21,528 nucleotides of DNA from a virus. Taxonomy: Duplodnaviria; Heunggongvirae; Uroviricota; Caudoviricetes. The first letter of the stretch is position 1; every line of letters starts with the position of its first letter. Where the stretch lies: the IMG/VR virus record IMGVR_UViG_2526164668_000015; one strand, given 5' to 3'. The notes under the pieces are model-generated. The model had not been told where the DNA came from. It made no database searches and saw only the letters and a list, made by a program, of their open reading frames with translations. Both the position numbers and the translations under genes were made by a program. This document shows positions 2,404-21,528 of the stretch, piece by piece.

Positions 2404-2408
2404 CCGTT

Positions 2409-3497: not shown

Positions 3498-3515
3498 CTG
3501 TTCATATCCTCACAG

Positions 3516-3543: not shown

Positions 3544-3685
3544 AAAGAAGATTTCCAATAATCAGAACAAGTCGGCTCCTGTTTAGTTACGAGCGACATT
3601 GCTCCGTGTATTCACTCGTTGGAATGAATACACAGCGCTGTGTTTATTCTGTTGTTTGCGTGAAAATGAAATCCGCCTGAGCGGG

Positions 3686-4555
3686 TTATGACCACTTTTT
3701 GTTTGGGTTTCGTTGGTGAGCGTGGTTTACAGGATTATTTGATATACCCCATAACTCTGACTCGCTTATCTCTACACGAGAGAAAGACCTGCTTTCTTTC
3801 AGTTCTTTTATAAACCTAGAACCTAAGATGACATCTATTGTACCAGAAAGTTCTTGTAAAAGATCTATGTTTTTTCTGAGGAAGAAAATATCTTCTTTAT
3901 ATTTAATTTTTACATAGAATTTATTCTGTATTTTTAATATATCAAAGCATGGCAGATATCTATATCCCTCATATTTTCGCCACTGCTTAACAATTATAAC
4001 ATCTTTTTCATTTACTGCATTAATCAGCCCAAGACCAAGTACAGGTATGAATATTCTATTGTCTGCCGAAAGCGTACAATTATCACCACCAGGCAAATAT
4101 GTATAAATCATGTCGGAATTTTTATACGCATCAACGAATGCACGTAAGAAGCGTACATATTTTTGCCATCCGTTTATACCGAATTTACCATATAAGTATT
4201 CTTTATTTGTTAGAAGAAAACTATTTGTATCAGGATCCTTATCTACAGACCTGTCGATAAGATCTCCAACTACGTTTACAAAGTCAAAGACAGAGTTTAA
4301 TAAGAACAATTGTCTTTCAGTAGGGCGAATTTCAATTATGTAGCCAGGATGAAGACGATATTGCATCTGCTTACGAAGTATACCGAACGCTTGGGTCCGA
4401 GCATCTGAAAGCAACTTCTTGTCGCCATCGCCGTGAGCATTGTTTCTAATAAAACTGATATAATTTGCTAATTTTTCAGCCTCTTTTTTGTGTTTTTTTC
4501 GCTCTGATGCTGAGTCTATTGGTTTTGGTATGGACTTGTAATCAATCTTCTTCAT
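3686..4555 (-). CDS. orphan low-GC protein (289 aa from ATG 4555; 293 aa from ATG 4567); function unknown, candidate exclusion/defence moron with motifs resembling the TnpB N-terminal half
   Basis: Single uninterrupted ORF. The minus-strand junction reads GGC ATG AGG TAC GTA ATG AAG, so the N stop TGA sits inside ATGAGGT and GAGGT gives an RBS 5 nt before the second ATG. The gene is very AT-rich compared with the flanking lambda genes. I recognise no family with confidence. Confidence 0.8.
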   Translation of the reverse strand: MKKIDYKSIPKPIDSASERKKHKKEAEKLANYISFIRNNAHGDGDKKLLSDARTQAFGILRKQMQYRLHPGYIIEIRPTERQLFLLNSVFDFVNVVGDLIDRSVDKDPDTNSFLLTNKEYLYGKFGINGWQKYVRFLRAFVDAYKNSDMIYTYLPGGDNCTLSADNRIFIPVLGLGLINAVNEKDVIIVKQWRKYEGYRYLPCFDILKIQNKFYVKIKYKEDIFFLRKNIDLLQELSGTIDVILGSRFIKELKESRSFSRVEISESELWGISNNPVNHAHQRNPNKKWS

Positions 4556-4563
4556 TACGTACC

Positions 4564-4887
4564 TCATGCCAATGGAATGGATTCCCCTTTAACCTTTTGT
4601 CTTCCTTGACAAGTTATACCGAACTCACCTGGCTTGCTATACCAAACTCGATGATTCTTGCGCTCAATACGTTGCAGGTTGCTTTCAATCTGTTCGTGGT
4701 ATTCAGCCAGCACCGTAAGGTCTATCGGATTCAGTGCGCTTTCTACTCGTGATTTCGGTTTGCGATTCAGCGAGAGAATAGGGCGGTTAACTGGTTTAGC
4801 GCTTACCCCAACCAACAGGGGATTTGCTGCTTTCCATTGAGCCTGTTTCTCTGCGCGACGTTCGCGGCGGCGTGTTTGTGCATCCAT
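4564..4887 (-). CDS. N: antitermination protein N (107 aa)
   Basis: Internal start of track ORF 4564-5019: MDAQTRRRERRAEKQAQWKAANPLLVGVSAKPVNRPILSLNRKPKSRVESALNPIDLTVLAEYHEQIESNLQRIERKN... is lambda N with its arginine-rich motif. The last residues diverge from lambda. Confidence 0.95.
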   Translation of the reverse strand: MDAQTRRRERRAEKQAQWKAANPLLVGVSAKPVNRPILSLNRKPKSRVESALNPIDLTVLAEYHEQIESNLQRIERKNHRVWYSKPGEFGITCQGRQKVKGESIPLA

Positions 4888-5044
4888 CTGGATTCTCCTG
4901 TCAGTTAGCTTTGGTTGTGTGTGGGAGTCGTAGTCCTGAACGAAAACACCCCGCAATGGCACATTGGCAGCTAATCCGGATTCGCACTTCCGGCCAATGC
5001 TTCGTTTCGTATCACACACACCAAAGCCTTCTGCTTTGAATGCT

Positions 5045-5074
5045 GCCCTTCTTCAGGGCTTAATTTTTAAGAGC
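5045..5074 (-). promoter_or_regulatory. nutL (boxA + boxB)
   Basis: The minus strand reads GCTCTTAAAAATTAAGCCCTGAAGAAGGGC. The boxB hairpin GCCCTGAAGAAGGGC lies at 5045-5059 and the boxA-like GCTCTTAAA at 5066-5074. Confidence 0.9.
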
Positions 5075-5115
5075 CTCACCTTCAATGGTGGTCAGTGCGT
5101 CCTGCTGATGGCTTA

Positions 5116-5188
5116 AAATTACAAGGAAGATTGTATGTTGTAAACAAGAAATATTGTAAAAAGGGGCGTGAAAAACAAACTCCATTGT
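5116..5188 (-). promoter_or_regulatory. pL with 434-type operators OL1-OL3
   Basis: Three 14-bp ACAA-N6-TTGT sites: ACAAGGAAGATTGT 5121-5134, ACAAGAAATATTGT 5144-5157 and ACAAACTCCATTGT 5175-5188. On the minus strand, -35 TTTACA (5139-5144), a 17-nt spacer and -10 TAATTT (5116-5121). Confidence 0.85.
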
Positions 5189-5238
5189 TTTTAAACGGAA
5201 AATAGTTTGTTTTTTTGTTATCGAGATTGAGGTGGGGA

Positions 5239-6591
<1,353 letters not shown>

Positions 6592-6599
6592 GACATTCC

Positions 6600-6631
6600 C
6601 GCTCTTACACATCCCAGCCCTGAAAAAGGGC
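6600..6631 (+). promoter_or_regulatory. nutR (boxA CGCTCTTA + boxB)
   Basis: CGCTCTTA at 6600-6607 and boxB GCCCTGAAAAAGGGC at 6617-6631. They are followed by the tR1-region palindrome TGTATGCA...TGCATACA at about 6654-6675. Confidence 0.9.
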
Positions 6632-6710
6632 ATCAAAATAAACCACACCTATGGTGTATGCATTTATTTGCATACATTCAATCAATTGTTATCTAAGGAA
6701 ATACTTACAT

Positions 6711-7004
6711 ATGGTTCGTGCAAACAAACGCAACGAGGCTCTACGAATCGAGAGTGCGTTGCTTAACAAAATCGCAATGCTTGGAACTGAGAAGACAGCG
6801 GAAGCTGTGGGAGTTGATAAGTCGCAGATCAGCAGGTGGAAGAGGGATTGGATTCCAAAGTTCTCAATGCTGCTTGCTGTTCTTGAATGGGGTGTCGTCG
6901 ACGACGACATGGCTCGATTGGCACGACAAGTTGCTTCGATTCTCACCAATAAAAAACGCCCGGCGGCAACCGAGCGTTCTGAACAAATCCAGATGGAATT
7001 CTGA
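6711..7004 (+). CDS. cII: CII transcriptional activator (97 aa)
   Basis: MVRANKRNEALRIESALLNKIAMLGTEKTAEAVGVDKSQISRWKRDWIPKFSMLLAVLEWGVVDDDMARLARQVASILTNKKRPAATERSEQIQMEF is lambda CII. Confidence 0.96.
   Translation: MVRANKRNEALRIESALLNKIAMLGTEKTAEAVGVDKSQISRWKRDWIPKFSMLLAVLEWGVVDDDMARLARQVASILTNKKRPAATERSEQIQMEF
6720..6733 (-). promoter_or_regulatory. pRE CII-binding repeat TTGC-N6-TTGC
   Basis: The minus strand reads TTGCGTTTGTTTGC within the first cII codons, as in lambda pRE. Confidence 0.7.
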
Positions 7005-7026
7005 GGTTATTACTGGAACTATCAAC
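6950..7026 (-). ncRNA. oop: oop antisense RNA (about 77 nt) overlapping the cII 3' end
   Basis: The minus strand reads GTTGATAGTTCCAGTAATAACCTCAGAATTCCATCTGGATTTGTTCAGAACGCTCGGTTGCCGCCGGGCGTTTTTTATT. This is near-identical to my memory of lambda oop and ends in a GC hairpin plus T run. Confidence 0.75.
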
Positions 7027-7036
7027 AGGAGTCATT

Positions 7037-7936
7037 ATGACAAATACAGCAAAAATACTCAACTTCGGCAGAGGTAACTTTGCCGGACAGGAGCGTAATG
7101 TGGCAGATCTCGATGATGGTTACGCCAGACTATCAAATATGCTGCTTGAGGCTTATTCAGGCGCAGATCTGACCAAGCGACAGTTTAAAGTGCTGCTTGC
7201 CATTCTGCGTAAAACCTATGGGTGGAATAAACCAATGGACAGAATCACCGATTCTCAACTTAGCGAGATTACAAAGTTACCTGTCAAACGGTGCAATGAA
7301 GCCAAGTTAGAACTCGTCAGAATGAATATTATCAAGCAGCAAGGCGGCATGTTTGGACCAAATAAAAACATCTCAGAATGGTGTATCCCTCAAAACGAGG
7401 GAAAATCCCCTAAAACGAGGGATAAAACATCCCTCAAATTGGGGGATTGCTATCCCTCAAAACAGGGGAACACAAAAGACACTAATACAAAAGAAAATAG
7501 AAAAGATTATTCGTCAGAGAATTCTGGCGAATCCTCTGACCAGCCAGAAAACGACCTTTCTGTGGTGAAACCTGATGCTGCAATTCAGAGCGGCAGCAAA
7601 TGGGGGACAGCAGAAGACCTGACCGCCGCAGAGTGGATGTTTGACATGGTGAAGACTATCGCGCCATCAGCCAGAAAACCGAATTTTGCAGGGTGGGCTA
7701 ACGATATCCGCCTGATGCGTGAACGTGACGGACGTAACCACCGCGATATGTGTGTGCTGTTCCGCTGGGCCTGCCAGGACAACTTCTGGTCCGGTAATGT
7801 GCTGAGCCCGGCCAAACTCCGCGACAAGTGGACCCAGCTCGAAATCAACCGTAACAAGCAACAGGCAGTCGTGACAGCCAGCAAACCAAAACTCGACCTG
7901 ACAAACACAGACTGGATTTACGGGGTGGATTTATGA
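7037..7936 (+). CDS. O: replication initiator O (299 aa)
   Basis: MTNTAKILNFGRGNFAGQERNVADLDDGYARLSNMLLEAYSGADLTKRQFKVLLAILRKTYGWNKPMDRI... matches lambda O and contains the ori iterons. Confidence 0.96.
   Translation: MTNTAKILNFGRGNFAGQERNVADLDDGYARLSNMLLEAYSGADLTKRQFKVLLAILRKTYGWNKPMDRITDSQLSEITKLPVKRCNEAKLELVRMNIIKQQGGMFGPNKNISEWCIPQNEGKSPKTRDKTSLKLGDCYPSKQGNTKDTNTKENRKDYSSENSGESSDQPENDLSVVKPDAAIQSGSKWGTAEDLTAAEWMFDMVKTIAPSARKPNFAGWANDIRLMRERDGRNHRDMCVLFRWACQDNFWSGNVLSPAKLRDKWTQLEINRNKQQAVVTASKPKLDLTNTDWIYGVDL
7386..7520. repeat. ori-lambda: four O-binding iterons followed by an AT-rich unwinding region
   Basis: Iterons TCCCTCAAAACGAGGGA 7386-7402, TCCCCTAAAACGAGGGA 7406-7422, TCCCTCAAATTGGGGGA 7430-7446 and TCCCTCAAAACAGGGGA 7453-7469. 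They are followed by A-rich ACACAAAAGACACTAATACAAAAGAAAATAGAAAAG. Confidence 0.92.
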
Positions 7937-8634
7937 AAAACATCGCCGCACAGATGGTTAACTTTGACCGTGAGCAGATGCGTCGGATCGCCAACAACAT
8001 GCCGGAACAGTACGACGAAAAGCCTCAGGTACAGCAGGTAGCGCAGATCATCAACGGTGTGTTCAGCCAGTTACTGGCAACTTTCCCGGCGAGCCTGGCT
8101 AACCGTGACCAGAACGAACTGAACGAAATCCGCCGCCAGTGGGTTCTGGCTTTCCGGGAAAACGGGATCACCACAATGGAACAGGTTAACGCAGGAATGC
8201 GCGTAGCCCGTCGGCAGAATCGACCATTTCTGCCATCACCCGGGCAGTTTGTTGCATGGTGCCGGGAAGAAGCATCCGTTATCGCCGGACTGCCAAACGT
8301 CAGCGAGCTGGTTGATATGGTTTACGAGTATTGCCGGAAGCGAGGCCTGTATCCGGATGCGGAGTCTTATCCGTGGAAATCAAACGCGCACTACTGGCTG
8401 GTTACCAACCTGTATCAGAACATGCGGGCCAATGCGCTTACTGATGCGGAATTACGGCGCAAGGCTGCCGATGAACTGTCCTGTATGACCGCACGAATTA
8501 ACCGTGGTGAGGCTATACCTGAACCAGTAAAACAACTTCCTGTCATGGGCGGTAGACCTCTAAATCGTGCACAGGCTCTGGCGAAGATCGCAGAAATCAA
8601 AGCTAAGTTTGGGCTGAAAGGAGCAAGTGTATGA
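7933..8634 (+). CDS. P: replication protein P (DnaB loader, 233 aa)
   Basis: MKNIAAQMVNFDREQMRRIANNMPEQYDEKPQVQQVAQIINGVFSQLLATFPASLANRDQNELNEIRRQW... matches lambda P. ATGA overlap with O. Confidence 0.96.
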   Translation: MKNIAAQMVNFDREQMRRIANNMPEQYDEKPQVQQVAQIINGVFSQLLATFPASLANRDQNELNEIRRQWVLAFRENGITTMEQVNAGMRVARRQNRPFLPSPGQFVAWCREEASVIAGLPNVSELVDMVYEYCRKRGLYPDAESYPWKSNAHYWLVTNLYQNMRANALTDAELRRKAADELSCMTARINRGEAIPEPVKQLPVMGGRPLNRAQALAKIAEIKAKFGLKGASV

Positions 8635-8921
8635 CGGGCAAAGAGGCAATTATTCATTACCTGGGGACGCATAATAGCTTCTGTGCGCCGGACGTTGCCG
8701 CGTTAACAGGCGCAACAGTAACCAGCATAAATCAGGCCGCGGCTAAAATGGCACGGGCAGGTCTTCTGGTTATCGAAGGTAAGGTCTGGCGAACGGTGTA
8801 TTACCGGTTCGCTACTAGGGAAGAACGGGAAGGAAAGATGAGCACGAACCTGATTTTTAAGGAGTGTCGCCAGAGTGCCGCGATGAAACGGGTATTGGCG
8901 GTATATGGAGTTAAAAGATGA
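8631..8921 (+). CDS. ren: Ren (96 aa)
   Basis: MTGKEAIIHYLGTHNSFCAPDVAALTGATVTSINQAAAKMARAGLLVIEGKVWRTVYYRFATREEREGKMSTNL... matches lambda Ren. It overlaps the P stop. Confidence 0.92.
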   Translation: MTGKEAIIHYLGTHNSFCAPDVAALTGATVTSINQAAAKMARAGLLVIEGKVWRTVYYRFATREEREGKMSTNLIFKECRQSAAMKRVLAVYGVKR

Positions 8922-8945
8922 CCATCTACATCACTGAGCTAATAA

Positions 8946-8978
8946 CAGGCCTGCTGGTAATCGCAGGCCTTTTTATTT
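8946..8978 (+). terminator. tR2 intrinsic terminator
   Basis: CAGGCCTGC-TGGTAATC-GCAGGCCT hairpin followed by TTTTTATTT, between ren and ninB as in lambda. Confidence 0.85.
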
Positions 8979-8994
8979 GGGGGAGAGGGAAGTC

Positions 8995-9435
8995 ATGAAA
9001 AAACTAACCTTTGAAATTCGATCTCCAGCACATCAGCAAAACGCTATTCACGCAGTACAGCAAATCCTTCCAGACCCAACCAAACCAATCGTAGTAACCA
9101 TTCAGGAACGCAACCGCAGCTTAGACCAAAACAGGAAGCTATGGGCCTGCTTAGGTGACGTCTCTCGTCAGGTTGAATGGCATGGTCGCTGGCTGGATGC
9201 AGAAAGCTGGAAGTGTGTGTTTACCGCAGCATTAAAGCAGCAGGATGTTGTTCCTAACCTTGCCGGGAATGGCTTTGTGGTAATAGGCCAGCCAACCAGC
9301 AGGATGCGTGTAAGCGAATTTGCGGAGCTATTAGAGCTTATACAGGCATTCGGTACAGAGCGTGGCGTTAAGTGGTCAGACGAAGCGCGACTGGCTCTCG
9401 AATGGAAAGCGCGATGGGGAGATCGGGCTGCATGA
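8995..9435 (+). CDS. ninB: NinB (Orf recombination mediator, 146 aa)
   Basis: Internal ATG of the track ORF: MKKLTFEIRSPAHQQNAIHAVQQILPDPTKPIVVTIQERNRSLDQNRKLWACLGDVSRQVEWHGRWLD... matches lambda NinB. Confidence 0.93.
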   Translation: MKKLTFEIRSPAHQQNAIHAVQQILPDPTKPIVVTIQERNRSLDQNRKLWACLGDVSRQVEWHGRWLDAESWKCVFTAALKQQDVVPNLAGNGFVVIGQPTSRMRVSEFAELLELIQAFGTERGVKWSDEARLALEWKARWGDRAA

Positions 9436-9959
9436 CTATCAAATCAAATACGCCAGCACACGACAAGGACTGCTGGCAAACGCCGCTTTGGCTTTTTGAT
9501 GCACTGGATATTGAGTTTGGATTCTGGCTGGATTCGGCAGCGAGCGACAAAAACGCTCTGTGCGCTCACTGGCTAACTGAGGCTGACGACGCGCTAAATT
9601 CTGAGTGGATAAGCCACGGTGCAATCTGGAATAACCCACCGTACAGCAATATCAGGCCGTGGGTGGAAAAAGCCGCTGAGCAGTGCATACAACAGCGACA
9701 GACGGTAGTGATGCTTGTGCCAGAGGATATGTCTGTCGGATGGTTCAGCAAGGCTCTGGAGAGTGTTGACGAAGTTCGTATTATCACTGATGGACGGATT
9801 AATTTTATCGAACCATCGACAGGGCTGGAGAAGAAGGGAAACAGCAAAGGCTCCATGCTGCTGATTTGGCGACCGTTCATTAGTCCTCGACGGATGTTTA
9901 CTATCGTATCCAAAGCGGCATTGATGGCGATCGGGCAGGGCGTCAGGAGGGCGACATGA
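9432..9959 (+). CDS. phage DNA N6-adenine methyltransferase (Dam-like, NPPY motif), 175 aa
   Basis: Start [31 protein letters not shown] (ATG 9432 overlaps the ninB stop). It has the DxWxTP N-terminal motif and the catalytic NNPPY at IWNNPPYS. It occupies the ninC/ninD slot. Confidence 0.85.
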
Positions 9960-10138
9960 GGCGACAACGACGAAGTTTCACCGACATCATCTGCGAAAAC
10001 TGCAAATACCTTCCAACGAAACGCTCCAGAAATAAACGCAAGCCAATCCCAAAAGAATCTGACGTAAAAACCTTCAACTACACGGCTCACCTGTGGGATA
10101 TCCGGTGGCTAAGACATCGTGCGAGGAATACAAGGTGA
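9956..10138 (+). CDS. ninE: NinE (60 aa)
   Basis: [58 protein letters not shown] matches lambda NinE. Confidence 0.9.
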
Positions 10139-10305
10139 TTGACCCAAATCGAAGTTACGAACAAGAAAGCGTCGAGCGGGCTTTAACGTGCGCTAATTGC
10201 GGTCAGAAGCTGCATGTGCTGGAAGTTCACGTGTGTGAGCACTGCTGTGCAGAGCTGATGAGCGATTCGAATAGCTCGATGCACGAGGAAGAAGATGATG
10301 GCTAA
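10135..10305 (+). CDS. ninF: NinF (56 aa, GTG start overlapping the ninE stop)
   Basis: (V/M)[55 protein letters not shown] matches lambda NinF. The track ORF 10093-10305 extends upstream artificially. Confidence 0.85.
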
Positions 10306-10909
10306 ACCAGCGCGAAGACGATGTAAAAACGATGAATGTCGGGAATGGTTTCACCCTGCATTCGCTAATCAGTGGTGGTGCTCTCCAGAGTGTGGAACCA
10401 AGATAGCACTCGAACGACGAAGTAAAGAACGCGAAAAAGCGGAAAAAGCAGCAGAGAAGAAACGACGACGAGAGGAGCAGAAACAGAAAGATAAACTTAA
10501 GATTCGAAAACTCGCCTTAAAGCCCCGCAGTTACTGGATTAAACAAGCCCAACAAGCCGTAAACGCCTTCATCAGAGAAAGAGACCGCGACTTACCATGT
10601 ATCTCGTGCGGAACGCTCACGTCTGCTCAGTGGGATGCCGGACATTACCGGACAACTGCTGCGGCACCTCAACTCCGATTTGATGAACGCAATATTCACA
10701 AGCAATGCGTGGTGTGCAACCAGCACAAAAGCGGAAATCTCGTTCCGTATCGCGTCGAACTGATTAGCCGCATCGGGCAGGAAGCAGTAGACGAAATCGA
10801 ATCAAACCATAACCGCCATCGCTGGACTGTCGAAGAGTGCAAGGCGATCAAGGCAGAGTACCAACAGAAACTCAAAGACCTGCGAAACAGCAGAAGTGAG
10901 GCTGCATGA
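10295..10909 (+). CDS. ninG: NinG (Rap structure-specific endonuclease, 204 aa)
   Basis: [64 protein letters not shown]... matches lambda NinG. Confidence 0.93.
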
Positions 10910-11571
10910 ATATCTACGAAAGAATTGATGGCAGCAAATACCGAAATATTTGGGTAGCTGGCGACCTGCACGGATGCTACACGAACCTGATGAACAAACT
11001 GGATACGATTGGATTCGACACCAAAAAAGACCTGCTCATCTCGGTTGGCGATTTGGTTGATCGCGGTACAGAGAACGTCGAATGTCTGGAATTAATCACA
11101 TTCCCCTGGTTCAGAGCTGTGCGTGGAAACCATGAGCAAATGATGATTGATGGCTTATCAGAGCGTGGAAACGTTAATCACTGGCTGCTTAATGGCGGTG
11201 GCTGGTTCTTTAATCTCGATTACGACAAAGAGACTCTGGCTAAAGTTCTTGCCCATAAAGCAGAAGAACTTCCGTTAATCATCGAACTGGTGAGCAAAGA
11301 TAAAAAATATGTCATTTGCCACGCCGATTATCCTTGTGATAAATACGAGTTTGGAAAGCCAGTTGATCATCAGCAGGTAATCTGGAACCGCGAACGAATC
11401 AGCAACTCACAAGACGGGATCGTGAAAGAAATCAAAGGCGCGGACACGTTCATCTTTGGTCATACGCCAGCAGTGAAACCACTCAAATTTGCCAACCAGA
11501 TGTATATCGATACTGGCGCAGTGTTCTGCGGAAACCTCACATTGATTCAGGTACAGGGAGAAGGCGCATGA
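10906..11571 (+). CDS. ninI: lambda Ser/Thr protein phosphatase (NinI, 221 aa); ninH is absent
   Basis: Contains the metallophosphatase motifs GDLHGC, GDLVDRG and GNHE. Length and sequence match the lambda phosphatase. ATGA overlap with ninG. Confidence 0.93.
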
Positions 11572-11657
11572 GACTCGAAAGCGTAGCTAAATTTCATTCG
11601 CCAAAAAGCCCGATGATGAGCGACTCACTACTGGCCACAGTTTATTGGTTTTCGTAA
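11568..11657 (+). pseudogene. Q: 5' remnant of lambda-type antiterminator Q (about 24 of 207 codons)
   Basis: ATG 11568 overlaps the ninI stop as in lambda. [20 protein letters not shown] matches the lambda Q N-terminus. The sequence then diverges (LLATVYWFS) and stops at 11655-11657. Confidence 0.8.
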
Positions 11658-11782
11658 CTGAGTCATTTTATTATTTTATTGCAACTTTTAATCTTTTATA
11701 GTGCGAAATAAATGGAGCTGGCATTCATTTCGCACTTTATGTTTTTGTTGGACTTATGTTATTTTGATTGAATTCAATTCAG

Positions 11783-12742
11783 TTAAAAAAAGAAGGTGAT
11801 TGCTCCATTTATAAATGAATAGTCATCCCCTGTCTTGAATTCTGATGTTACTTTATTAAATGCTAGTGTGAAGGCTACAGGTGCATACCCAATTGTTGCG
11901 CCAACTTGATATTCATCAACAGTTTTGTTTAGCGATACTGTTGTTTGTTTCGTCTGTATTGTTTTTCCTTCGAGAGTATAGTTGCGATTGACATCTCGTC
12001 TTTCCATACCTGCAAAAATCTTGTATTTGAATCCGCTTGTATCGGACATATGCATTAAACCACGGGGAGCCAGCAGACCAAAGCCATTATCCGAATTGAA
12101 GGTTTTATCATTACCAATGGCAATGGTTGCGCCATATGCTACATATTGAAATAAGTTTCCAGTAACAGCAGAAACTTCAGGGTATAATCCAACATTAGCA
12201 CCTAAAATATCCATACTTGGTGTCATGGATAGCATCCCTTTTACAGTATAACCGTAGCGATTCTCTATTTGATCATCCCATGCATGATATTTTTCTGCCC
12301 CAATAATCTCATGAGCTTTATTTTGTACTTTCTGACCGCCTGCGTCGGGGCCAACAACACCTATGTCAGTACCTAATCGATAGCGAATCCAGTCATTCGC
12401 AAGGGAGTTCCATTCAATACCAGTGTGAGTGTATGCACTAAAAGCTCTGTCTCCAGTTACAGCTGTGTTGTGTCTTTTATTACTGCCTGATGGAGAGTAA
12501 ATATCTTGCGCAATATGGAGAGATAATTGGCTCGAGTCTGAGATATCGTGGCTATATCCCAGAAATAAGCCTTGTGAGTAATCATCTCTGTTTTCATGTT
12601 TATTGCCATAAATATCATTAAGTATTGGTTGAAACTTCCCTGCATCATCATTTGCTAATGATAATGCAAGGCTGTTCGCGATAGCTGAACACGTGGTAAA
12701 TGACAGAGCAATAAAGACGCCAGCGATGACACTTTTTTTCAT
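11783..12742 (-). CDS. lpxR: LpxR-family outer-membrane lipid A 3'-O-deacylase (319 aa)
   Basis: Signal peptide MKKSVIAGVFIALSFTTCSAIA and the C-terminal beta-barrel signature ...GAITFFF. If cleaved after AIA, the mature protein starts NSLALSLANDD and has N9-D10, S34, Q118 and H122, which fits my recollection of the Salmonella LpxR active-site numbering. AT-rich moron on the opposite strand. Confidence 0.7.
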   Translation of the reverse strand: MKKSVIAGVFIALSFTTCSAIANSLALSLANDDAGKFQPILNDIYGNKHENRDDYSQGLFLGYSHDISDSSQLSLHIAQDIYSPSGSNKRHNTAVTGDRAFSAYTHTGIEWNSLANDWIRYRLGTDIGVVGPDAGGQKVQNKAHEIIGAEKYHAWDDQIENRYGYTVKGMLSMTPSMDILGANVGLYPEVSAVTGNLFQYVAYGATIAIGNDKTFNSDNGFGLLAPRGLMHMSDTSGFKYKIFAGMERRDVNRNYTLEGKTIQTKQTTVSLNKTVDEYQVGATIGYAPVAFTLAFNKVTSEFKTGDDYSFINGAITFFF

Positions 12743-13216
12743 ATGTTATTGTCTTCCTTTTTTTTGAATGGTGCGCGTATTTTACATACATGAGTTTGTA
12801 ATACAAGGTGCGTAATCAATATGATGTTTTATAATTGCGTGAGACAATTGATTTATTCGTTTTTTATTGCGGTTTTTATTATCTTTTAATGTAACGGTGT
12901 TTTTATTAAGTGTGTTTGCGTGGTGTTTTATGTTTTTTATAATTTTTATTTTATTAAATTTAAATGCATTAGTAATGGCTATTCTATATAGCAATATAAG
13001 AACTGTTACAAAAAAAGGGGGGCAATTACAGGTAGTTATGGATGATGAGTGAAACAGATATTGGAGAACCGGGGAATGAATGATGTCTGAGTCTTATATA
13101 TCAGAACTCCTTCGCTGTCGCTGGGGGCTCCTGTGCTTATGTCGTTTCCCCGATTCGGTTTTGAACGATTACCGAATGTTGAAGAATTATGCCAAAATAT
13201 AGAAAGGATTTACTGC

Positions 13217-13906
13217 ATGAATACCCAATATTTACAGTATGTTCGTGAGCAACTTATGGCAGCTACTGCTGACTTGAACGGAGCAACGAAAGGCCAGCTC
13301 GAAGCCTGGCAGGAGCATGCACAATTTGATACTGGTACATACAAACGAAAGAAGCTGCGCATTCTGGATGTGGTAACTGGCAAGATGATTACGCTGGATA
13401 ATACGCCGACTTCCGGTAAGCAGTCGTACGCAAAAGGTTCATCCATTGCTTTGGTCAGCCCGGTTGAATTCTCAACCTCTTCATGGCGCCGCGCGGTTTT
13501 GTCTCTCGATGAACATCAGAAAGCATGGTTGCTTTGGTGTTACAGCGAAAGCGTTCGATGGGGGCATCAGGTCACCATAACGCAATGGGCATGGAGCGAG
13601 TTTAAAGATTTGTTAAGTAACAGAAAAATTGCAGGTAAGACACTGGATCGCCTGAAGACGTTAATCTGGCTGGCTGCACAGGATGTGAAGAGCGAACTTG
13701 CAGGGCGTGAGGCCTATGAATACCAGACACTGGCATCATTGGTGGGAGTGACAACAAAAAACTGGTCCGAGACATTTACTGAACGCTGGGTTGCAATGAA
13801 GCACATTTTTCTACAGCTTGATAGTGATGCTTTATTGCTTGTGACGAGAACACGTTCAAAACAAAAGGCAGCATTTTTACAGCAAAATATTGCAAAACTG
13901 GATTAA
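13217..13906 (+). CDS. putative late antiterminator Q, non-lambda type (229 aa)
   Basis: ATG 13217 is preceded by AAAGGA. MNTQYLQYVREQLMAATADLNGATKGQLEAWQEH... resembles Q-homologue annotations of E. coli lambdoid prophages, from memory and unverified. A near-consensus promoter and a short terminated leader follow immediately, as expected for a Q/pR'/tR' module. Confidence 0.55.
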   Translation: MNTQYLQYVREQLMAATADLNGATKGQLEAWQEHAQFDTGTYKRKKLRILDVVTGKMITLDNTPTSGKQSYAKGSSIALVSPVEFSTSSWRRAVLSLDEHQKAWLLWCYSESVRWGHQVTITQWAWSEFKDLLSNRKIAGKTLDRLKTLIWLAAQDVKSELAGREAYEYQTLASLVGVTTKNWSETFTERWVAMKHIFLQLDSDALLLVTRTRSKQKAAFLQQNIAKLD

Positions 13907-13918
13907 AAGCCATATACT
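13890..13918 (+). promoter_or_regulatory. pR'-like late promoter
   Basis: -35 TTGCAA 13890-13895, a 17-nt spacer and -10 TATACT 13913-13918, overlapping the end of the Q-like gene. A -10-like TATGTT lies in the initially transcribed region and may be a sigma-dependent pause element. Confidence 0.65.
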
Positions 13919-13952
13919 TCATGCAAATTTGGTATGTTGTAAAAAATGTATA

Positions 13953-13979
13953 AACCCGCTGCCGAGTGGGTTTTTTTTA
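13953..13979 (+). terminator. tR'-like intrinsic terminator ending a leader transcript of about 55 nt
   Basis: CCCGCT-GCCG-AGTGGG hairpin (one G-U pair) followed by T8 at 13971-13978. Confidence 0.75.
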
Positions 13980-14117
13980 TGCCCTGAGTTGTACTTGTAC
14001 GGTAAACATGCTGGCTGCTATGTAATAGAGTTTTTTTAGCCTGTAACCTCTTGACGGCATTGAATTGCTTTTGTTATGAGTTGTAAGCCAATGTTATCAT
14101 CTTGTATTGGGGTGGTT

Positions 14118-14595
14118 ATGAAGGATGGTGCGCTGCTCAGGAGTTCTTCACTTTTTATTGCCTACATGGGATGCCTTGGATGGGGGAGTGCTTATTTCTA
14201 TGGATGGGGTACTTCTTTTTACTACGGCTTCCCATGGTGGATTGTAGGTGCAGGTGTTGATGATGTTGCCAGAAGTTTATTTTTTTGCAGTTATCGTCAT
14301 TGCTATATTTCTTATCGGTTGGGGTATTGGTGTTGTATTCTTTTTCGCAGTGAAAAGAAAACATTCTATGCAAGAGCTAAATGTATTTCGCCTTTATTTT
14401 GCTGTGGAATTATTGTTTGTGCCGGCAATTATTGAGTTTTCTATATTGAGACAGAAGATTCAGGTACCTCTTTTGCTACTGTCAGCAGCGATTGCGCTGG
14501 CGGTTACAATTTCGATAAGATCTTATGGGCGATTTTTATCGGTATCATGCTTCTATGATAAGCCATTTATAAAAAACATTTTTTTGAGATTGTGA
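14118..14595 (+). pseudogene. AT-rich polytopic membrane protein gene split by a frameshift at a T7 tract (14280-14286)
   Basis: ORF 14076-14435 is plausible only up to ...GVDDVARSLFF, then becomes Cys/Tyr/Arg-rich nonsense. ORF 14248-14595 continues with convincing TM segments (FAVIVIAIFLIGWGIGVVFFFAV...). Removing one T from the T7 run joins them. The likely start is MKDGALL at 14118, after GGGGTGG. Confidence 0.55.
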
Positions 14596-14834
14596 TGATT
14601 GCTTTTGTGGCATATTTTTGGCTTTTTTCATTTCTGACAGGATATTACAAACCACAGTTTAAGAAAGAATATGAAATGATTAATTATAATGATGGTTGGT
14701 ATTATGTTCTTGCTCGTTATGATAATTGTCTGGTTTTGTCTACTTCTTTCAATGCAGGTAGTAAAAGGTTTGTCATTTATCAATCAGCACAAGATAAGAA
14801 TCTTCAGGTTGATATTGTAAGGACCAGAATTTAA
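14592..14834 (+). CDS. small membrane-anchored protein (79-80 aa), possibly the C-terminal part of the preceding gene
   Basis: GTG 14592 or ATG 14595 overlaps the upstream stop (GTGATGA). It has an N-terminal TM segment IAFVAYFWLFSFLTGYY followed by a soluble beta-rich tail. One extra T in the T7 run 14579-14585 would fuse it in frame to the upstream ORF. Confidence 0.5.
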   Translation: MMIAFVAYFWLFSFLTGYYKPQFKKEYEMINYNDGWYYVLARYDNCLVLSTSFNAGSKRFVIYQSAQDKNLQVDIVRTRI

Positions 14835-15124
14835 TTGGCTGCATAAATAATATTTTAAGTTGCAAGTTGGCTATTCGTAGGAATAGAACCTTAGGCATGC
14901 TGAATGCGTTTTCTGAACATTGTTTTATAAACTGTGTCTGCTTGCTGTTGTGATCCTGCTTTTAGTGATGGTGATGATGGATTTCACCAGCAGGATAATG
15001 TTGGTACTGACTGATGGCGCTCTGGTCTGCGGCATTGTGGTATTGCTGTGGCCGATGATGAAAGAACAGGTGATGCTGCCAACTTACTGATTTAGTGTAT
15101 GATGGTGTTTTTTGAGGTGCTCCA

Positions 15125-15400
15125 GTGGCTTCTGTTTCTATCAGCTGTCCCTCCTGTTCAGCTACTGACGGGGTGGTGCGTAACGGCAAAAGCACCGCCG
15201 GACATCAGCGCTATCTCTGCTCTCACTGCCGTAAAACATGGCAACTGCAGTTCACTTACACCGCTTCTCAACCCGGTACGCACCAGAAAATCATTGATAT
15301 GGCCATGAATGGCGTTGGATGCCGGGCAACTGCCCGCATTATGGGCGTTGGCCTCAACACGATTTTACGTCACTTAAAAAACTCAGGCCGCAGTCGGTAA
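15125..15400 (+). CDS. insA: IS1 InsA (91 aa)
   Basis: [91 protein letters not shown] is canonical InsA. Confidence 0.95.
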
Positions 15401-15822
15401 CCTCGCGCATACAGCCGGGCAGTGACGTCATCGTCTGCGCGGAAATGGACGAACAGTGGGGCTATGTCGGGGCTAAATCGCGCCAGCGCTGGCTGTTTTA
15501 CGCGTATGACAGTCTCCGGAAGACGGTTGTTGCGCACGTATTCGGTGAACGCACTATGGCGACGCTGGGGCGTCTTATGAGCCTGCTGTCACCCTTTGAC
15601 GTGGTGATATGGATGACGGATGGCTGGCCGCTGTATGAATCCCGCCTGAAGGGAAAGCTGCACGTAATCAGCAAGCGATATACGCAGCGAATTGAGCGGC
15701 ATAACCTGAATCTGAGGCAGCACCTGGCACGGCTGGGACGGAAGTCGCTGTCGTTCTCAAAATCGGTGGAGCTGCATGACAAAGTCATCGGGCATTATCT
15801 GAACATAAAACACTATCAATAA
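15319..15822 (+). CDS. insB: IS1 InsB frame (167 aa; transposase InsAB' is made by a -1 frameshift at TTAAAAAAC 15374-15382)
   Basis: ...[71 protein letters not shown]... is canonical InsB. The A6 slippery run is present. Confidence 0.93.
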
Positions 15823-16581
15823 GTTGGAGTCATTACCAGTACCTTGTAGCCTTTATTTGCAGGATATAAAGGTAAAAACTCGGTTAATAATGGGTCAGGA
15901 CCTTTAATAGTTGTAAACTTGAACAAAATGACGTTAATATTATTAACGTAGATGATATTATCAGAACAACCTTCTTGCCATCCATTTTATCGCATTCAAA
16001 CATTATAAATGTACTTAGTATTATTCATAAATGATATCAAGATGGCACCTTAACCTTCACCCAAACGACGTTAACCAAATAAAAGAAAGTTAAGATGCCA
16101 TCGAAATATCATTAATTGCTGCATATCCTTTATCATACAATAACAAATGTTCTCCTTATTGTTTTTTTGTGCATCCCTGCTTTTAATATTTACATGCAAT
16201 GGAAAAACAGTATATGGAGAGAACTTTTCCGCAAAACATTTTCATATCCTACGCTCCTGAAATATAACAGATCCACTCAGACATAAATCGCAAAAAATTC
16301 AAGGTTAACGTAAAATGTAAAAAACTTAGCGTAACTAATATTGGTTTACCTTCGTTACTGTAAATACGCCAACATAGCATAGATAATCAATGAGGTATAG
16401 TCTGTTTATGAGAATTAATTTATAAAAACAAGTGAATAACAATGGAGAATTAATCCTTGCAGCTTATGAGTTTGTGAAGCAATTGGGAAAGAAAAATATA
16501 AATGATGTGAAAAAAAATAATTATTCGTCTTACCAATGCACTCGAGACTACTGATCCTACCCACGTAATGTGGACACGGCC

Positions 16582-17435
16582 CTAAGCGAGATTATGGTTT
16601 TCAAATTGTTCCGGGCTGAGACCGCCACAGGCACTGTGACGACGCCAGCGATTGTAATCACACTCGATATAATTAAACACCGTTGCCCGCATTATTTCCC
16701 GGCTGCTAAAGCGTTCCCCGTGGATACATTCCACCTTCAGCGAATGAAAGAAGCTTTCCACACAGGCATTGTATAACAGTAGCCTTTCGCACTCATACTG
16801 CCACGCAGGTTGTGTCGCTTCAGCAGCGCCTGATAATCCCCTGAACAGTATTGACCACCACGGTCCGTATGAACAATGACGCTTTCCGGGCGTCTTCTCC
16901 GCCACAACGCCATTTGCAGTGCATCACAGGCCAGTTGTGCTGTCATTCGCGGTGACATCGACCAGCCAATAACGGCGCGTGACCACAGGTCGATGACTAC
17001 TGCGAGATACAACCAGCCCTCATCGGTACGCAAGTACGTGATGTCACCCGCCCACTTCTGGTTCGGGCCGCTGGCGCTGAAGTCCTGCTCCAGCAGATTC
17101 TCCAATACGGGCAGGCCATGTGCACGGTAGCTGACCGGGCTGAACTTCCGGCTGGCTTTCGCCCGCAGCCCCTGACGACGCAGGCTGGCGGCAATGGTTT
17201 TAATATTGAACTCCGGCAGTTCGTCAGCAAGGCGGGGAGCACCGTATCGCTGCTTTGCCTCAAAGAATGCCTTATGGACAGCGGCATCGCAGGTGAGCCG
17301 AAACTGTTGGCGCAGGCTCATCTGGTGACGACGCCTGAGCCAGACATACCAGCCGCTGCGGGCAACCCGAAGTACACGACACATCGCTTTGATGCTGAAC
17401 TCTGCCCGATGATTTTCGATGAAGACATACTTCAT
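16582..17435 (-). pseudogene. IS3-family OrfB (DDE transposase) with a frameshift
   Basis: ORF 16737-17435 matches IS3 InsF up to ...SMSAKGYCY. The rest ([62 protein letters not shown]) lies in the frame of ORF 16582-16905. TGTTATACAATGCC instead of the expected TGTTATGACAATGCC suggests a 1-bp deletion. Confidence 0.85.
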
Positions 17436-17731
17436 TTCAGGCGCTTCGCGAAGTATGTCGCGGCCTTTTGGAGGATGGCCAGTTCCTCAGCCTGCTCCGC
17501 CAGTTGTCGTTTAAGGCGGACATTTTCAGCGGCCAGTTCGCTTTCGCGCTCTGACGAACTCATTTGTTGCTGCTGTTTACTGCGCCAGGCATAAAGCTGG
17601 GATTCATACAGGCTGAGTTCACGGGCTGCGGCGGCCACACCGATGCGTTCAGCGAGTTTCAGGGCTTCGTTACGAAATTCAGGCGTATGTTGTTTACGGG
17701 GCTTCTTGCTGATTGATACTGGTTTTGTCAT
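17432..17731 (-). CDS. IS3-family OrfA (99 aa, HTH plus leucine zipper)
   Basis: [56 protein letters not shown]...[16 protein letters not shown] closely resembles E. coli IS3 InsE. Confidence 0.92.
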
Positions 17732-18049
17732 GAGTCACCTCTGGTTGAGAGTTTACTCACTTAGTCCTGTGTCCACTATTGGTGGGTAAGATCATAAATA
17801 CCCATTCAATACGCTGTATGGCCGCTGAAAGAACATTTTCTTCCGCTATGACTTTTTGTGTACCTCTCATACATAGCCCTGATAAAGCATTCTGATTTAA
17901 CTTTCTGTCAAATACGAGGCAACCAGTCCGTAATCAACCACACAACAAACCAGAACCCCATCATCAGAATCAAATACTCCATGATGACTGAAATACTTAT
18001 TTTCATATCATTACCGCACCCTGATAATATTCAGTACAGAATTATCCCA

Positions 18050-18847
18050 TTACTGATACTCAATACTCACTGGCAGGGACACATTCCAGCGTTCTGTTTT
18101 ATCTCCCCACAGATGTAATTCGCCGGTGTCAGCAATAGTCCGGGCACCATAAACACCTTCAATCTGGCGAAGAGCAGTATCGCTGAAATGGCTTACGCCT
18201 GTCTCTGAACTTACTGACATCGTCGGCAACCACCCCGGACCTTCACCATCAAACATTGACTGCAGTAATCCGGGAATCTGCTCTGTGTTCAGAACATGGG
18301 ACTTATCAGGCAGACCGTTTCCCCCTACATCATCATATATACTGGTATAAGTAACCTGACCGTTACTTACATGCCGCATAAGTCCTGCCGCCTGCATACG
18401 AAACGTAAAATGACCAATCCGATGGCTATCTTCCCCCGTAACAGGCAATGTAACATCTGCAACTCCTGGTGTGGCCCACACCAGAGAAAAATCCTCAATA
18501 CCTTTTCCGAATATAATTCGGGGAGCCAGCCCCTCACGTCCGGCAGGTGTGGTAAGAACTGTTTTTCCCAGTACAAGATTCATGGCAGGCAAAGAAACAG
18601 GAACCACCGTATCTCCACTACGTGAAACCGGAGAATGTTTGACATTCAGGTTTGACTTCCCTTCTCCTATCTTCCACACCCAGGGATTACGGGTACTGGT
18701 TACTGGACCGCCCAGTTTAAGTTCACCACTGAAATCCTGACCGGGTGTATTCCAGGCCAGAACACTGAATGGAAAAAAACAAACAATCAGAAATAACAAA
18801 ACAGAATTCTTCACATTTTTCTCCACTATTGTTTCCCTGCCATTCAT
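18050..18847 (-). CDS. FaeI-like minor fimbrial subunit (FaeG paralogue), about 265 aa
   Basis: The start [31 protein letters not shown] (ATG 18845-18847) overlaps the upstream stop. [23 protein letters not shown] parallels the FaeG N-terminal motif. The C-terminal pilin strand is [12 protein letters not shown]. Confidence 0.8.
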
Positions 18848-19620
18848 TGCACAGTAACCGTAACATTCAGTTTTGCCTGCCACTGAGCAGGTGTCCCTTC
18901 TGCCGGAAGGTGTAATTCAAAATCAGACACAGAAGATGCATAAGCAGCGGCAAGATTTTTGACTCTGCCATCCGCAAGAATCCCCTGACTGATAACCTGC
19001 CCGTTATCCACTGCGCTCATTCCACCACCAAATTTCTGATTCATCAGCAACAATGAAGATAAACGGTTCTTCAGTTCTTGAGGTAAACTACCGGACTGAA
19101 CATTCGTCACACTCTGTCCACTAACCAGTGACATCCCCGCAGGTACCGATACGCCATCCTCCTGGACACCAGTACTGACAGCCATCCCCTGATCAAGGGT
19201 AAAATAAAGTTGCCCTGTCACCTGACCATTTTCAGGATCACTTACCGGGACAGAAGCACGAAAATGTTGTGCAGTGGCACTGTTTCCGTCTGTTACCGTA
19301 AAAGGCTGACCATTACTACTGAACGTGATAAAAGGCGTAAAACCAGGACCACCGCGCTCTGCCACTTCGAACAGATGCCCCTCAAGAAATGGTAATGAAC
19401 CTTTATCATGCAAATCAAAAATAAGCTGCCCATTCTCTGTTAGGGCATCAGCTGTATCCACGGCCCAAGTCTGTCCGGATGAACCTATCTGCCAAGTCCA
19501 TTTAGGTGCCTCATCAGTAACAAAACCATGAAACTGGATTTCACCACCATCAAGGCGCTCAGCATATAATTTCATTGAACATAAAAGAACACATCCAAAA
19601 AGAAAAAAGAATAACAACAA
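18844..19620 (-). CDS. FaeH-like minor fimbrial subunit (FaeG paralogue); the 5' end is apparently frameshifted or uses a TTG start
   Basis: [27 protein letters not shown] and the C-terminal [10 protein letters not shown] fit the FaeG/H/I family. The only ATG with a strong RBS (AGGAG 8 nt upstream, ATG 19632-19634) is out of frame with the ORF. Confidence 0.75.
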
Positions 19621-19758
19621 CGAACTAAATTCATGCTATTTACTCCTCATCCTTTAAAACAGAAGTCGGATGTATCGTTTTTGGAATAACACTCTCACTA
19701 TAAAACAGTGAGAGTGTTACAAATAATAAATGGTTTCTACTTATTTAAGTTCTGTGCA

Positions 19759-20622
19759 TTAATTGTATGCAACAGTAACATTAAGTGGAATTGACCAATT
19801 GGTTGTATGAGTGACTTTCTGTGTAAAGGTTAAATCAATTTTACTTCCGTTGACTAAACCGAACCCCATACCTGTAGCTGCAGTTGACATTTTTTCAATA
19901 TTAAATCTACTGTTCGCCTCATTTGGGGTTAAAGATTGCATCCATCCCTGATCAGCCCAGTTAGTAACTTGACCTACTCGTCCTTGGAGCTCAGAAACCA
20001 AATCAGACATTCCTAATTGGTTAAGAATATCTTCGGCTGTATCAATATCTGTAGCCTGGTGATTTCCACCAACAAGTCCCGCATATAACGAAGTAGAAAC
20101 ATTGTAATTATCAGAAACGACCAATTTAATACCAGTATCACCACTATCTGGAGTACCATACATCACACCTGCTACACGCGCATCTGTAATTTTTGCCGTA
20201 CCAACAGCTTGGCTATCAGCGTAAACTGGCACACTAAAATCAAACCCTCCATTGTTATTCCAGTTAGTACGAGAGATTTGAATACCATCACCACCACTAA
20301 CAACTACACTCGGCATAACACCTTTAGAATAACTATCAGCAGAATAAATCCCCTTAGTTTTTATAGCCAGAACAGGAATAGCTTCCTGAACAGGCAAAGA
20401 TAATTCGTTACCATTTACCAAGTCGGTACCATTATTAGCGAAATTAGTATAACCACTCCCTGTGGCAACCAGCCATACAGGAGTATCATCTACAGTAATT
20501 GTACCTCCAATAGAAACGGATCCTCCTGCAGAATTTTCCTCCCAAGCACCTAAACCAGCCATAGCAGAACCGGATACCGCAGTAGAGGCAACTACCGCAA
20601 GTGCAATCAACGTCTTTTTCAT
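19759..20622 (-). CDS. FaeG-like major fimbrial subunit/adhesin of a K88 (F4)-family fimbria (287 aa)
   Basis: The N-terminus MKKTLIALAVVAS..., GSVSIGGTITVDD and the C-terminus LTFTQKVTHTTNWSIPLNVTVAYN parallel K88 FaeG (MKKTLIALAIAAS, GSVDIGGSITADD, ATFNQAVTTSTQWSAPLNVAITYY) as I recall it. Confidence 0.88.
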   Translation of the reverse strand: MKKTLIALAVVASTAVSGSAMAGLGAWEENSAGGSVSIGGTITVDDTPVWLVATGSGYTNFANNGTDLVNGNELSLPVQEAIPVLAIKTKGIYSADSYSKGVMPSVVVSGGDGIQISRTNWNNNGGFDFSVPVYADSQAVGTAKITDARVAGVMYGTPDSGDTGIKLVVSDNYNVSTSLYAGLVGGNHQATDIDTAEDILNQLGMSDLVSELQGRVGQVTNWADQGWMQSLTPNEANSRFNIEKMSTAATGMGFGLVNGSKIDLTFTQKVTHTTNWSIPLNVTVAYN

Positions 20623-20843
20623 AAGTTTAATTCCTTCCAGTATATATATTTTATATAGCTGGTAACCCCGTCACAGAATTACCGCAAACCCATCCCTGAA
20701 CAATATATATAAATGTTGCCACATGTATGAATAGTGCAAAACAGAATGGGTTTACGTTATTCCCGTAAAAGCCAACCCTTTACCGCGAAATTATTCAGCG
20801 GACTTCAGTGAATTTATAAAACACAGAATGCAAATACTGATTT

Positions 20844-21335
20844 TTAATTAACGCCCTCCACCTGTAATGCAATCTGAATATTTCCGCGATAATTCACGGG
20901 AATTTCCAGGTCAGCCGGCACATCTGAACGTAACTCAACCTGTTTTTGTGCGTCCGGCACCGTTATCAGAACATCCTCGCCCTGCTGACTGGCATTCAGT
21001 ACAGCCTTTTGCCCATCCACCACCAGGGACGTTTTCAGGGTGATTCTGGCTTCCTGGTTATCCGGTAATACCTGCTTTACTGTGATATAAGCCATACCAC
21101 CGGATGCCGGACGGACTTCTGCATCACGAACCCGTAACTGTACCGGCAATGCATCATCACTCCGGTACAGTACCGGGTCAGTGGGGGTCCGGGTGACTTT
21201 CACCACGCTGTTCCCCACCACCTGACCATTCACCACCCCCAGATATTGCGTTTTCTCACTGTATTCATTTGCATGAACCCCCTGAAAACCGAATGCAGTA
21301 AACAGCAGGCCAGCTATCATCATTTTCTTTTTCAT
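20844..21335 (-). CDS. FaeF-like minor fimbrial subunit (163 aa)
   Basis: Signal peptide MKKKMMIAGLLFTAFGFQGVHA and RBS GGGGAG. It is the same length as FaeF and lies between the chaperone and the major subunit. The C-terminal strand is NIQIALQVEGVN. Confidence 0.75.
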   Translation of the reverse strand: MKKKMMIAGLLFTAFGFQGVHANEYSEKTQYLGVVNGQVVGNSVVKVTRTPTDPVLYRSDDALPVQLRVRDAEVRPASGGMAYITVKQVLPDNQEARITLKTSLVVDGQKAVLNASQQGEDVLITVPDAQKQVELRSDVPADLEIPVNYRGNIQIALQVEGVN

Positions 21336-21377
21336 TTAACTCCCCTTCTGTTCTGTACTCCGGTACGGCGGGATTGA

Positions 21378-21528
21378 TTACGCTGCACTTTTCTGAGGTT
21401 GGACATTTTCATCAACGTTCGTCCCTGCCGTGGATTTCTTCTGATTAATCGTCCAGGTTTTCAGGTCACCATAATCATCCAGGGATTCCACTTTCACCAC
21501 ATTTCCCTTCACCTGCACTTCATCTCCT
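21378..21528 (-). CDS. 3' end of a periplasmic fimbrial chaperone gene (FaeE-like); the 5' part lies beyond the window
   Basis: Hand-translated minus-strand frame open from the window edge: GDEVQVKGNVVKVESLDDYGDLKTWTINQKKSTAGTNVDENVQPQKSAA, with the stop at 21378-21380. Assigned by its position upstream of the faeF-like gene. Confidence 0.6.
   Translation of the reverse strand, partial: GDEVQVKGNVVKVESLDDYGDLKTWTINQKKSTAGTNVDENVQPQKSAA

Follow-up and report, generated by a model that had tools for sequence, protein, structure and literature searches.

A TfpB-family membrane-protein gene in three fragments downstream of the late antiterminator gene of a 434-like prophage

Is a membrane-protein gene that changes reading frame at runs of a single base a switch, or is it simply broken? 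The question is raised by three overlapping open reading frames (ORFs) in IMG/VR virus record IMGVR_UViG_2526164668_000015 (Caudoviricetes), a stretch of 21,528 nucleotides that we refer to as the window. A preliminary description, made from the letters alone, placed the frame junctions in two runs of seven T (T7; other runs are written accordingly) and offered four explanations: slipped-strand phase variation, listed first, a decaying pseudogene, homopolymer sequencing errors and, at the second junction only, a pair of translationally coupled genes. As judged by sequence similarity, the three fragments are one gene of Pfam family PF27470 (TfpB), a family which had not been recognised in that description. 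The reading that we favour, with some reserve, is that this single TfpB-family gene, gene 68 of phage 434, carries an inherited null allele (A6) together with a T7 run that is probably an assembly error, and that neither run is a switch. The gene is already known: it is annotated in phage 434, and in the nearest relatives the NCBI pipeline flags it as 'frameshifted'. The finding is an ordinary one and has little weight as a discovery.

Three fragments and the intact gene

The three ORFs, all on the plus strand, were found directly after Q as described, at 14076-14435 (ORF1), 14248-14595 (ORF2) and 14592-14834 (ORF3), and the two T7 runs at 14280-14286 and 14579-14585 are present. The region 13900-14900 has 99.8% identity to phage 434 and 96.7% to phage 2B8. 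In both phages the locus holds one ORF: in phage 434 it is CPT_434_68 (UMO75332.1, 'putative membrane protein', 247 amino acids as annotated), and in phage 2B8 it has 238 amino acids counted from MKDG. Base-by-base alignment of this region with phage 434 revealed exactly two differences, both of them single-base changes of run length. With T6 and A7, gene 68 of phage 434 forms one ORF; with T7 and A6, the window copy falls into three fragments.

The first lesion is the T7 run at 14280-14286, which is T6 in every other copy found. It causes a +1 frameshift after residue 56; ORF1 holds residues 1-56 and ORF2, in the +1 frame, holds residues 57-152. Deletion of one T from this tract restores the phage 434 reading, as had been proposed. 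The second lesion had been assigned to the T7 run at 14579-14585. Intact alleles also have T7 at this place, where the run encodes FF of KKHFF, and the true lesion is the A6 run at 14571-14576, 3 nt 5′ of that tract, which is A7 in intact alleles, those of phages 434 and 2B8 included, and whose shortening causes a -1 frameshift after residue 152. The natural sequence at the second site is PFIKKHFFEIVM. The repair suggested earlier, from T7 to T8, would yield PFIKNIFFEIVM, which restores the frame but gives wrong residues, ...KNIFF... for ...KKHFF.... ORF1 and ORF3 (residues 159-238) share a frame because the +1 and -1 changes cancel, yet the shifted stretch between them hits a stop at 14433-14435, and a full-length product is therefore not encoded. 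The repaired window sequence is identical to the phage 434 protein. Four of the 42 window runs of at least six bases lie in the TfpB-family gene. The coincidence of the lesions with runs has no special meaning, because slippage and sequencing error both predict indels at such places.

Membership of PF27470 was established by similarity, with PF27470-tagged matches down to E 1e-158. The tags are precomputed annotations; the Pfam copy that we scanned predates the model and gave no significant hit. Among 5.8 billion protein clusters 104 relatives were found, all tagged PF27470, and the gene-context tables give this family the name TfpB. A profile search of 1.84 billion representatives returned 72 cluster representatives only, and a scan of the protein against NCBIfam gave nothing above noise. 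PHROG 1521 (unknown function) matches the intact protein with E 2e-154; three smaller PHROGs, likewise of unknown function, also match it and evidently derive from annotated pieces of this gene.

Full-length homologues, each a single ORF of 236-240 amino acids and numbering more than 50, come from Escherichia, Citrobacter, Cronobacter, Klebsiella, Enterobacter, Salmonella and Yersinia, with 39-97% identity, and distant homologues occur in Neisseriaceae, Pasteurellaceae and Moraxella. About 98% of the E. coli copies have a single 238-amino-acid ORF at this locus. Comparison with homologous loci, which the preliminary description had named as a check, thus showed a single ORF in phages 434 and 2B8 and in the homologues, and the earlier proposal is confirmed: the pieces make up one protein of about 238 amino acids that begins with MKDGALL, ends with VRTRI and has several membrane helices followed by a small C-terminal domain. 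Measured against the family architecture, a single ORF of about 235-245 amino acids with an N-terminal motif, helices and a C-terminal beta domain, the window falls short: the motif and the domains are all present in its DNA, but they are split across three frames. The window copy is a disrupted member of PF27470, not a functional one.

Two observations on the family may be added here. A contig of 3054 bp from a metagenome-assembled genome labelled Veillonella sp. encodes a protein that matches the E. coli phage protein with 100% identity; it is almost certainly a mis-binned Enterobacteriaceae contig. The Acinetobacter 'TfpB', which is PilB-like, is an unrelated namesake.

Origin of the two run-length changes

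Copies of the gene in E. coli were collected with an 80-base query across the first run, which found 1209 copies in 682 of 5426 complete genomes. The first run was T6 in all 1209, and the T7 allele was found in none. In IMG/VR the 28-mer containing T7 occurred in no contig, that containing T6 in 106. Possible products of ORF1 or ORF2 were absent from a collection of 15 billion proteins.

The A6 allele was present in 16 of the 682 genomes (about 2%), which come from several unrelated studies and hosts and include strain C7, near-identical to the window. It was also present in 5 of 106 IMG/VR loci, isolate drafts among them. The exact products of this allele, 158 and 79 amino acids, occur in public protein sets, the 79-amino-acid downstream product on 411 contigs. 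A6 is common to E. coli C7 and C3, the closest sequenced relatives. C7 carries it in two different prophages (L005 3059-3801 and L152 7222-7964), both copies being annotated 'frameshifted', and because both have A6 the allele was probably already in the lineage. A6 would then be a null allele that the window has in common with C7, C3 and about 2% of E. coli genomes, and it was most likely inherited.

Identical A6 runs in both C7 copies also fit gene conversion between the prophages or a systematic consensus error in the A7-CA-T7 context. An error of this kind would be expected if both differences of the window were sequencing artefacts and the gene were intact in the strain; C7 and C3 share the same A6, which C7 has in two separate prophage copies, and the indel load of the window is error-like. 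We regard this explanation as improbable in view of the 16 complete genomes, the isolate drafts and the 411 contigs just mentioned.

The nature of the T7 change was assessed from the entire window, which is most closely related to E. coli C7, a cow isolate. Window 1-15069 matches a 434-like prophage spanning the start of the C7 chromosome record, and C7 plasmid A is the match for window 15069-21528, a part that carries IS1, ISEc16 and F4/K88-like fimbrial genes; chromosome and plasmid A served as references for the two parts, respectively. The window differs from C7 by 4 substitutions and 10 single-base indels, all of the indels in base runs. The changed side was assigned by comparison with phage 434 and other genomes. 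Two of the ten indels are private to C7, and the window has seven +1 insertions of its own, at 347, 412, 433, 1841, 1861, 14280 and 15108. Several of the seven extend runs of 1-3 bases only, and they cluster at 347-433 and 1841-1861. The single-T insertions at 1841 and 1861 truncate bet (minus strand, ORF 1810-2403) to a 197-amino-acid ORF and recur in none of the 4383 further copies from E. coli genomes. The insertion at 15108 is an extra T (T6 vs T5) in the left terminal region of IS1, a highly conserved end; this variant was the best match in 10 of 9314 E. coli records.

Replication slippage rarely lengthens runs of only 1-3 bases. Such an indel pattern is typical for under-polished long-read assemblies and unlike natural mutation. 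Because there are few substitutions and many single-base run indels, seven of them private +1 changes, the pattern points to assembly error. T7, private to the window and standing among six other private single-base insertions, would most likely be such an error. Run-length errors amount to roughly one single-base event per 2-3 kb of the window. A hit in a 717-bp AT-rich gene is therefore unremarkable, and for the same reason other apparent frameshifts in the window, for example that in bet, should not be taken as biology.

The insertions at 347, 412 and 433 span no more than 86 bp of a small early-region ORF (net +3). Neither phage 434 nor C7 nor the other closest genomes have them, and they resemble a local patch of low quality.

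Both run changes could instead be real mutations, which would make the gene a true double-hit pseudogene in a defective prophage under relaxed selection. The IS1 element at 15069 cuts Q and the TfpB-family gene off from lysis and structural genes, bet is broken too, and relatives also carry A6. Loss of the gene is also common: the 106 IMG/VR loci comprise 84 intact copies, 16 disrupted copies (about 15%) and 6 cut by contig ends, and the disruptions, among them nonsense changes and an 11-bp insertion, are spread over many sites. Loss or mis-sequencing of the gene is thus common and not bound to one tract. The mutational spectrum of the window speaks against two real hits: the indel to substitution ratio relative to C7 is 10:4, all seven private changes are +1, clustered and in several cases located in 1-3-base runs, which is unlike a natural spectrum, and one of them falls within the highly conserved IS1 end. 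We consider a double-hit pseudogene possible but doubtful. Pseudogene and homopolymer sequencing error were two of the four options offered in the preliminary description, and it is these two that the evidence favours.

Among the disrupted IMG/VR copies the loci L023, L077 and L088 have the same 11-bp insertion at gene nucleotide ~498-501, a further recurrent null allele.

Several points weigh against the reading that combines an inherited A6 with an erroneous T7. At this site, a T7 that arose as a recent real mutation in a defective prophage would look identical. The separation of the prophage from lysis and structural genes by IS1 makes relaxed selection and real decay plausible. A6 itself could be a recurrent long-read artefact, and its occurrence in both C7 copies fits gene conversion or systematic consensus error; some early records of the 158-amino-acid product may, to judge by their age, come from 454 data. 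The functional part of the reading, given below, is built on position, predicted structure and charge distribution only, and was accompanied by no fold match, no defence-system match and no conserved partner outside lambdoid prophages.

Slipped-strand phase variation would make the T run, the A run or both an ON/OFF switch of a Q-dependent membrane protein. Both lesions are located in base runs, and the A7 run is the commonest single disruption site (5 of the 16 disrupted IMG/VR loci, and the 16 complete genomes). However, tract length is hardly variable among close copies: the first run is invariant in the 1209 copies and the A run is A7 in about 98% of the genomes. The second T run, which is not a lesion, was T7 in the 74 IMG/VR loci scored as intact 238-amino-acid ORFs, with one T6 variant among the 106 loci. 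Nor is the tract conserved where synonymous alternatives exist. In a 94%-identical allele KK is coded by AAAGAAG in place of the A run. Seven more distant homologues examined at this site have neither run; they include the homologues from Salmonella, Yersinia and Klebsiella and an E. coli one with 39% identity. E. albertii, in contrast, retains the two. With 6-7 bases the runs are below the length of known bacterial switches, and the remaining disruptions are scattered. Phase variation, to which the preliminary description had given first place, is therefore very unlikely.

Still less probable is a native arrangement of several ORFs, either as coupled genes at GTGATGA or with programmed ribosomal or transcriptional slippage yielding the full-length protein. 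In its favour, an ATG overlaps the upstream stop of the A6 allele (ATGA), a -1 slip on T_TTT_TTG, three codons 5′ of this stop, would restore the frame, and many records annotate the 158- and 79-amino-acid products. The homologues of at least eight genera are single ORFs, however, and in the family alignment Met is common at the place in the last membrane helix where ORF3 starts. No conserved slippery motif was seen, the full-length homologues are single-frame, and the T7 shift would require a separate +1 event. The split at the second junction, where a coupled gene pair had been suggested, is a minority derived allele.

A combined form of the last two explanations can be imagined, in which A7 is a real ON/OFF site of low frequency and A6 is leaky, giving either two polypeptides (158 and 79 amino acids, through ATGA) or a full-length product by a -1 slip on T_TTT_TTG. 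A6 would then provide lysogens with a heritable yet leaky off state. We give this form very little credence. In summary, neither phase variation nor programmed slippage nor a native pair of coupled genes is supported, because the A run is unconserved, the runs have 6-7 bases and the Met of ORF3 is an ordinary helix residue.

Gene neighbourhood and the predicted protein

The features upstream of the gene agree with the preliminary description. The Q82-type late antiterminator gene Q (13217-13906, plus strand) matches PF06323 (Phage_antiter_Q) with E 7e-92 and is the counterpart of CPT_434_67 of phage 434. A consensus scan placed a pR′-like late promoter, TTGCAA-17-TATACT, at 13890-13918 on the plus strand, a consensus match only; it overlaps the 3′ end of Q, likewise in other lambdoid phages. 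A tR′-like intrinsic terminator with a 9-bp stem and a T run follows at 13952-13980 (plus strand), and the phage 434 record annotates a terminator as well. The TfpB-family gene occupies 14119-14834 of the plus strand. Its probable start is the ATG at 14119 (MKDG), since every homologue aligns from the MKDG position; the phage 434 record sets the start of gene 68 nine codons further upstream, which corresponds to window 14092. A candidate promoter of its own at 14071-14100, with a 9/12 consensus match, was not counted as evidence; shuffled sequence gave equally many hits.

The gene is followed by a gene for a small DUF3927/TciB-like membrane protein (14920-15090, plus strand; PF13064, E 3e-13; PHROG 1470; CPT_434_69 'TciB'), which in lambdoid prophages usually lies 3′ of the TfpB-family gene, as it does in phage 434 and both C7 prophages. 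According to our literature search the name 'TciB' traces to tci genes of phage P1. Its final codons are supplied by IS1 (15069-15837, plus strand, 769 bp with the extra T at 15108), which replaces the native ones and divides the prophage from plasmid-type sequence. Beyond IS1, window 15838-21528 shows 0 substitutions and two single-base gaps relative to C7 plasmid A. IS1 is flanked by unlike 9-bp sequences (gaaagaaca vs agtaccttg), so that a target-site duplication is absent; the junction could have arisen when two IS1 copies recombined to form a chromosome-plasmid cointegrate, or through a chimeric assembly at the repeat.

The location between Q, pR′ and tR′ on one side and the holin gene on the other, an accessory ('moron') slot, was found in phage 434 and in both C7 prophages, in line with the earlier remark that this is where Stx phages carry stx. 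In Yersinia loci the TfpB-family gene comes directly after Q. The window retains the upstream half of the slot, and its holin side is replaced by IS1. The G+C content of the gene is 36%, vs 45% in the window. Phage 434B is viable without the whole Q-to-lysis segment, which is replaced by DLP12 sequence (PMC9119081), and because it still grows the TfpB-family gene is probably dispensable for phage growth.

Two observations concern the sequence upstream of Q. An LpxR-family lipid A deacylase gene (11783-12742, minus strand) lies between a lambda-type Q remnant and the functional Q82-type Q, an arrangement shared with phage 434; this second accessory gene near the TfpB-family gene has an envelope activity that is known. 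At 11665, in the intergenic region ahead of lpxR, the window has an 8-bp insertion relative to phage 434, ATTTTATT, a local duplication.

The intact protein was modelled with AlphaFold2. A first model from 28 close sequences was poor (predicted local distance difference test, pLDDT, 60); after addition of the Neisseriaceae and Pasteurellaceae homologues, 46 sequences gave pLDDT 76 and a predicted template-modelling score (pTM) of 0.67. The model has five long helices (residues 3-36, 47-78, 89-111, 116-136 and 149-181) and a five-strand beta domain (187-232). Conservation is strongest in the first helix and the next loop, which are rich in aromatic residues and glycine (GWGSAYFYGWG..YYGFPWW..G.DDVARSLF); the N-terminal motif of the family is S-S..AY..GW.xAYxYGWG...YG[FY]PWW..G..[DN][IV]ARSL. 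The charge distribution (positive-inside rule) suggests an N-in, C-out topology that would place both the beta domain and the conserved loop in the periplasm. Foldseek searches of BFVD and the PDB gave no match at E 0.001 or below, and weak MscS-like matches (probability about 0.2) were disregarded. No match was found by sequence search of the PDB, nor with the PADLOC defence-system models at E up to 1.

These features, taken with the position of the gene, are consistent with an inner-membrane protein whose C-terminal beta domain would face the periplasm. In the phage, transcription from pR′ would reach the gene only once Q antitermination has occurred. The envelope appears the most likely target, possibly jointly with the neighbouring TciB-like protein. 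We hold loosely to the view that the intact gene encodes a dispensable, Q-dependent accessory protein of the inner membrane which acts on the envelope.

Relation to known systems

The TfpB family is widespread in Enterobacteriaceae prophages and is a reasonable experimental target, independent of the broken window copy. The family assignment links the phage 434 accessory gene to Salmonella STM1630 and to the Moraxella tfpB ORF. When the neighbourhoods of distant homologues outside lambdoid prophages were searched for a conserved partner gene, none was found, and guilt by association therefore yields no function.

As in the contingency loci of Neisseria, Haemophilus and Campylobacter, the frameshifts of the window occur at base runs within a gene for an envelope protein. 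Unlike in those loci, the runs have 6-7 bases, length polymorphism is nearly nil in the 1209 copies, and the runs are not conserved.

The accessory genes found between Q and holin genes, for example stx of Stx phages, lie in the same slot, 3′ of pR′/tR′ and 5′ of the holin. Like other lambdoid genes of this slot, the TfpB-family gene is AT-rich relative to its neighbours and probably dispensable. Unlike stx it encodes a polytopic membrane protein, without toxin or other known activity and without a fold match. Phage 434 itself has the same locus and neighbours as the window (LpxR, YlcG, Q82-type Q, terminator, DUF3927/TciB), and window 1-13900 is 99.4% identical to it; the difference is that IS1 stands in the window in place of everything 3′ of the TciB-like gene.

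In Salmonella Typhimurium the family is represented by STM1630, a PF27470-tagged protein of 238 amino acids with 46% identity. The Salmonella member is divergent from sseJ with a spacing of 426 bp, and its identity as STM1630 follows from the gene size, the neighbours, this spacing and the deletion-primer sequence (PMC6785131 supplements). In contrast to the phage gene, STM1630 is a chromosomal island gene between the effector genes steB and sseJ, with its own promoter. Its function is given as unknown in published work, and one screen reported hypermotility of a deletion mutant (PMC4219756). In a follow-up the deletion was re-made, and some phenotypes of the screen were put down to possible polar effects, in passages that give no STM1630 result (PMC4534456).

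The most distant of these relatives lead to the namesake of the family. Searches with tblastn found loci in Moraxella bovis, M. lacunata and M. equi. In M. lacunata (L142) a piv-like recombinase gene (2350-3336) is followed by a partial pilin gene, the homologue (3974-4561) and a pilin gene (5092-5571), so that the homologue lies beside piv, which is the place of the namesake gene. We take this locus to be the classical pilin inversion region, and the homologue to be its published tfpB ORF. To our knowledge no function has been described for Moraxella tfpB or for the phage gene, and the name TfpB carries over no activity.

The homologue of M. lacunata NCTC10359 has 195 amino acids and lacks the C-terminal beta domain of its relatives of ~240 amino acids; it, too, may be truncated.

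By profile search and tblastn the Moraxella tfpB ORF belongs to the same family as the phage gene, with 27-29% identity, and the two agree in length class and N-terminal aromatic/Gly motif; the Moraxella homologue is set in a pilin inversion locus, whereas the gene described here is set in a phage late operon.

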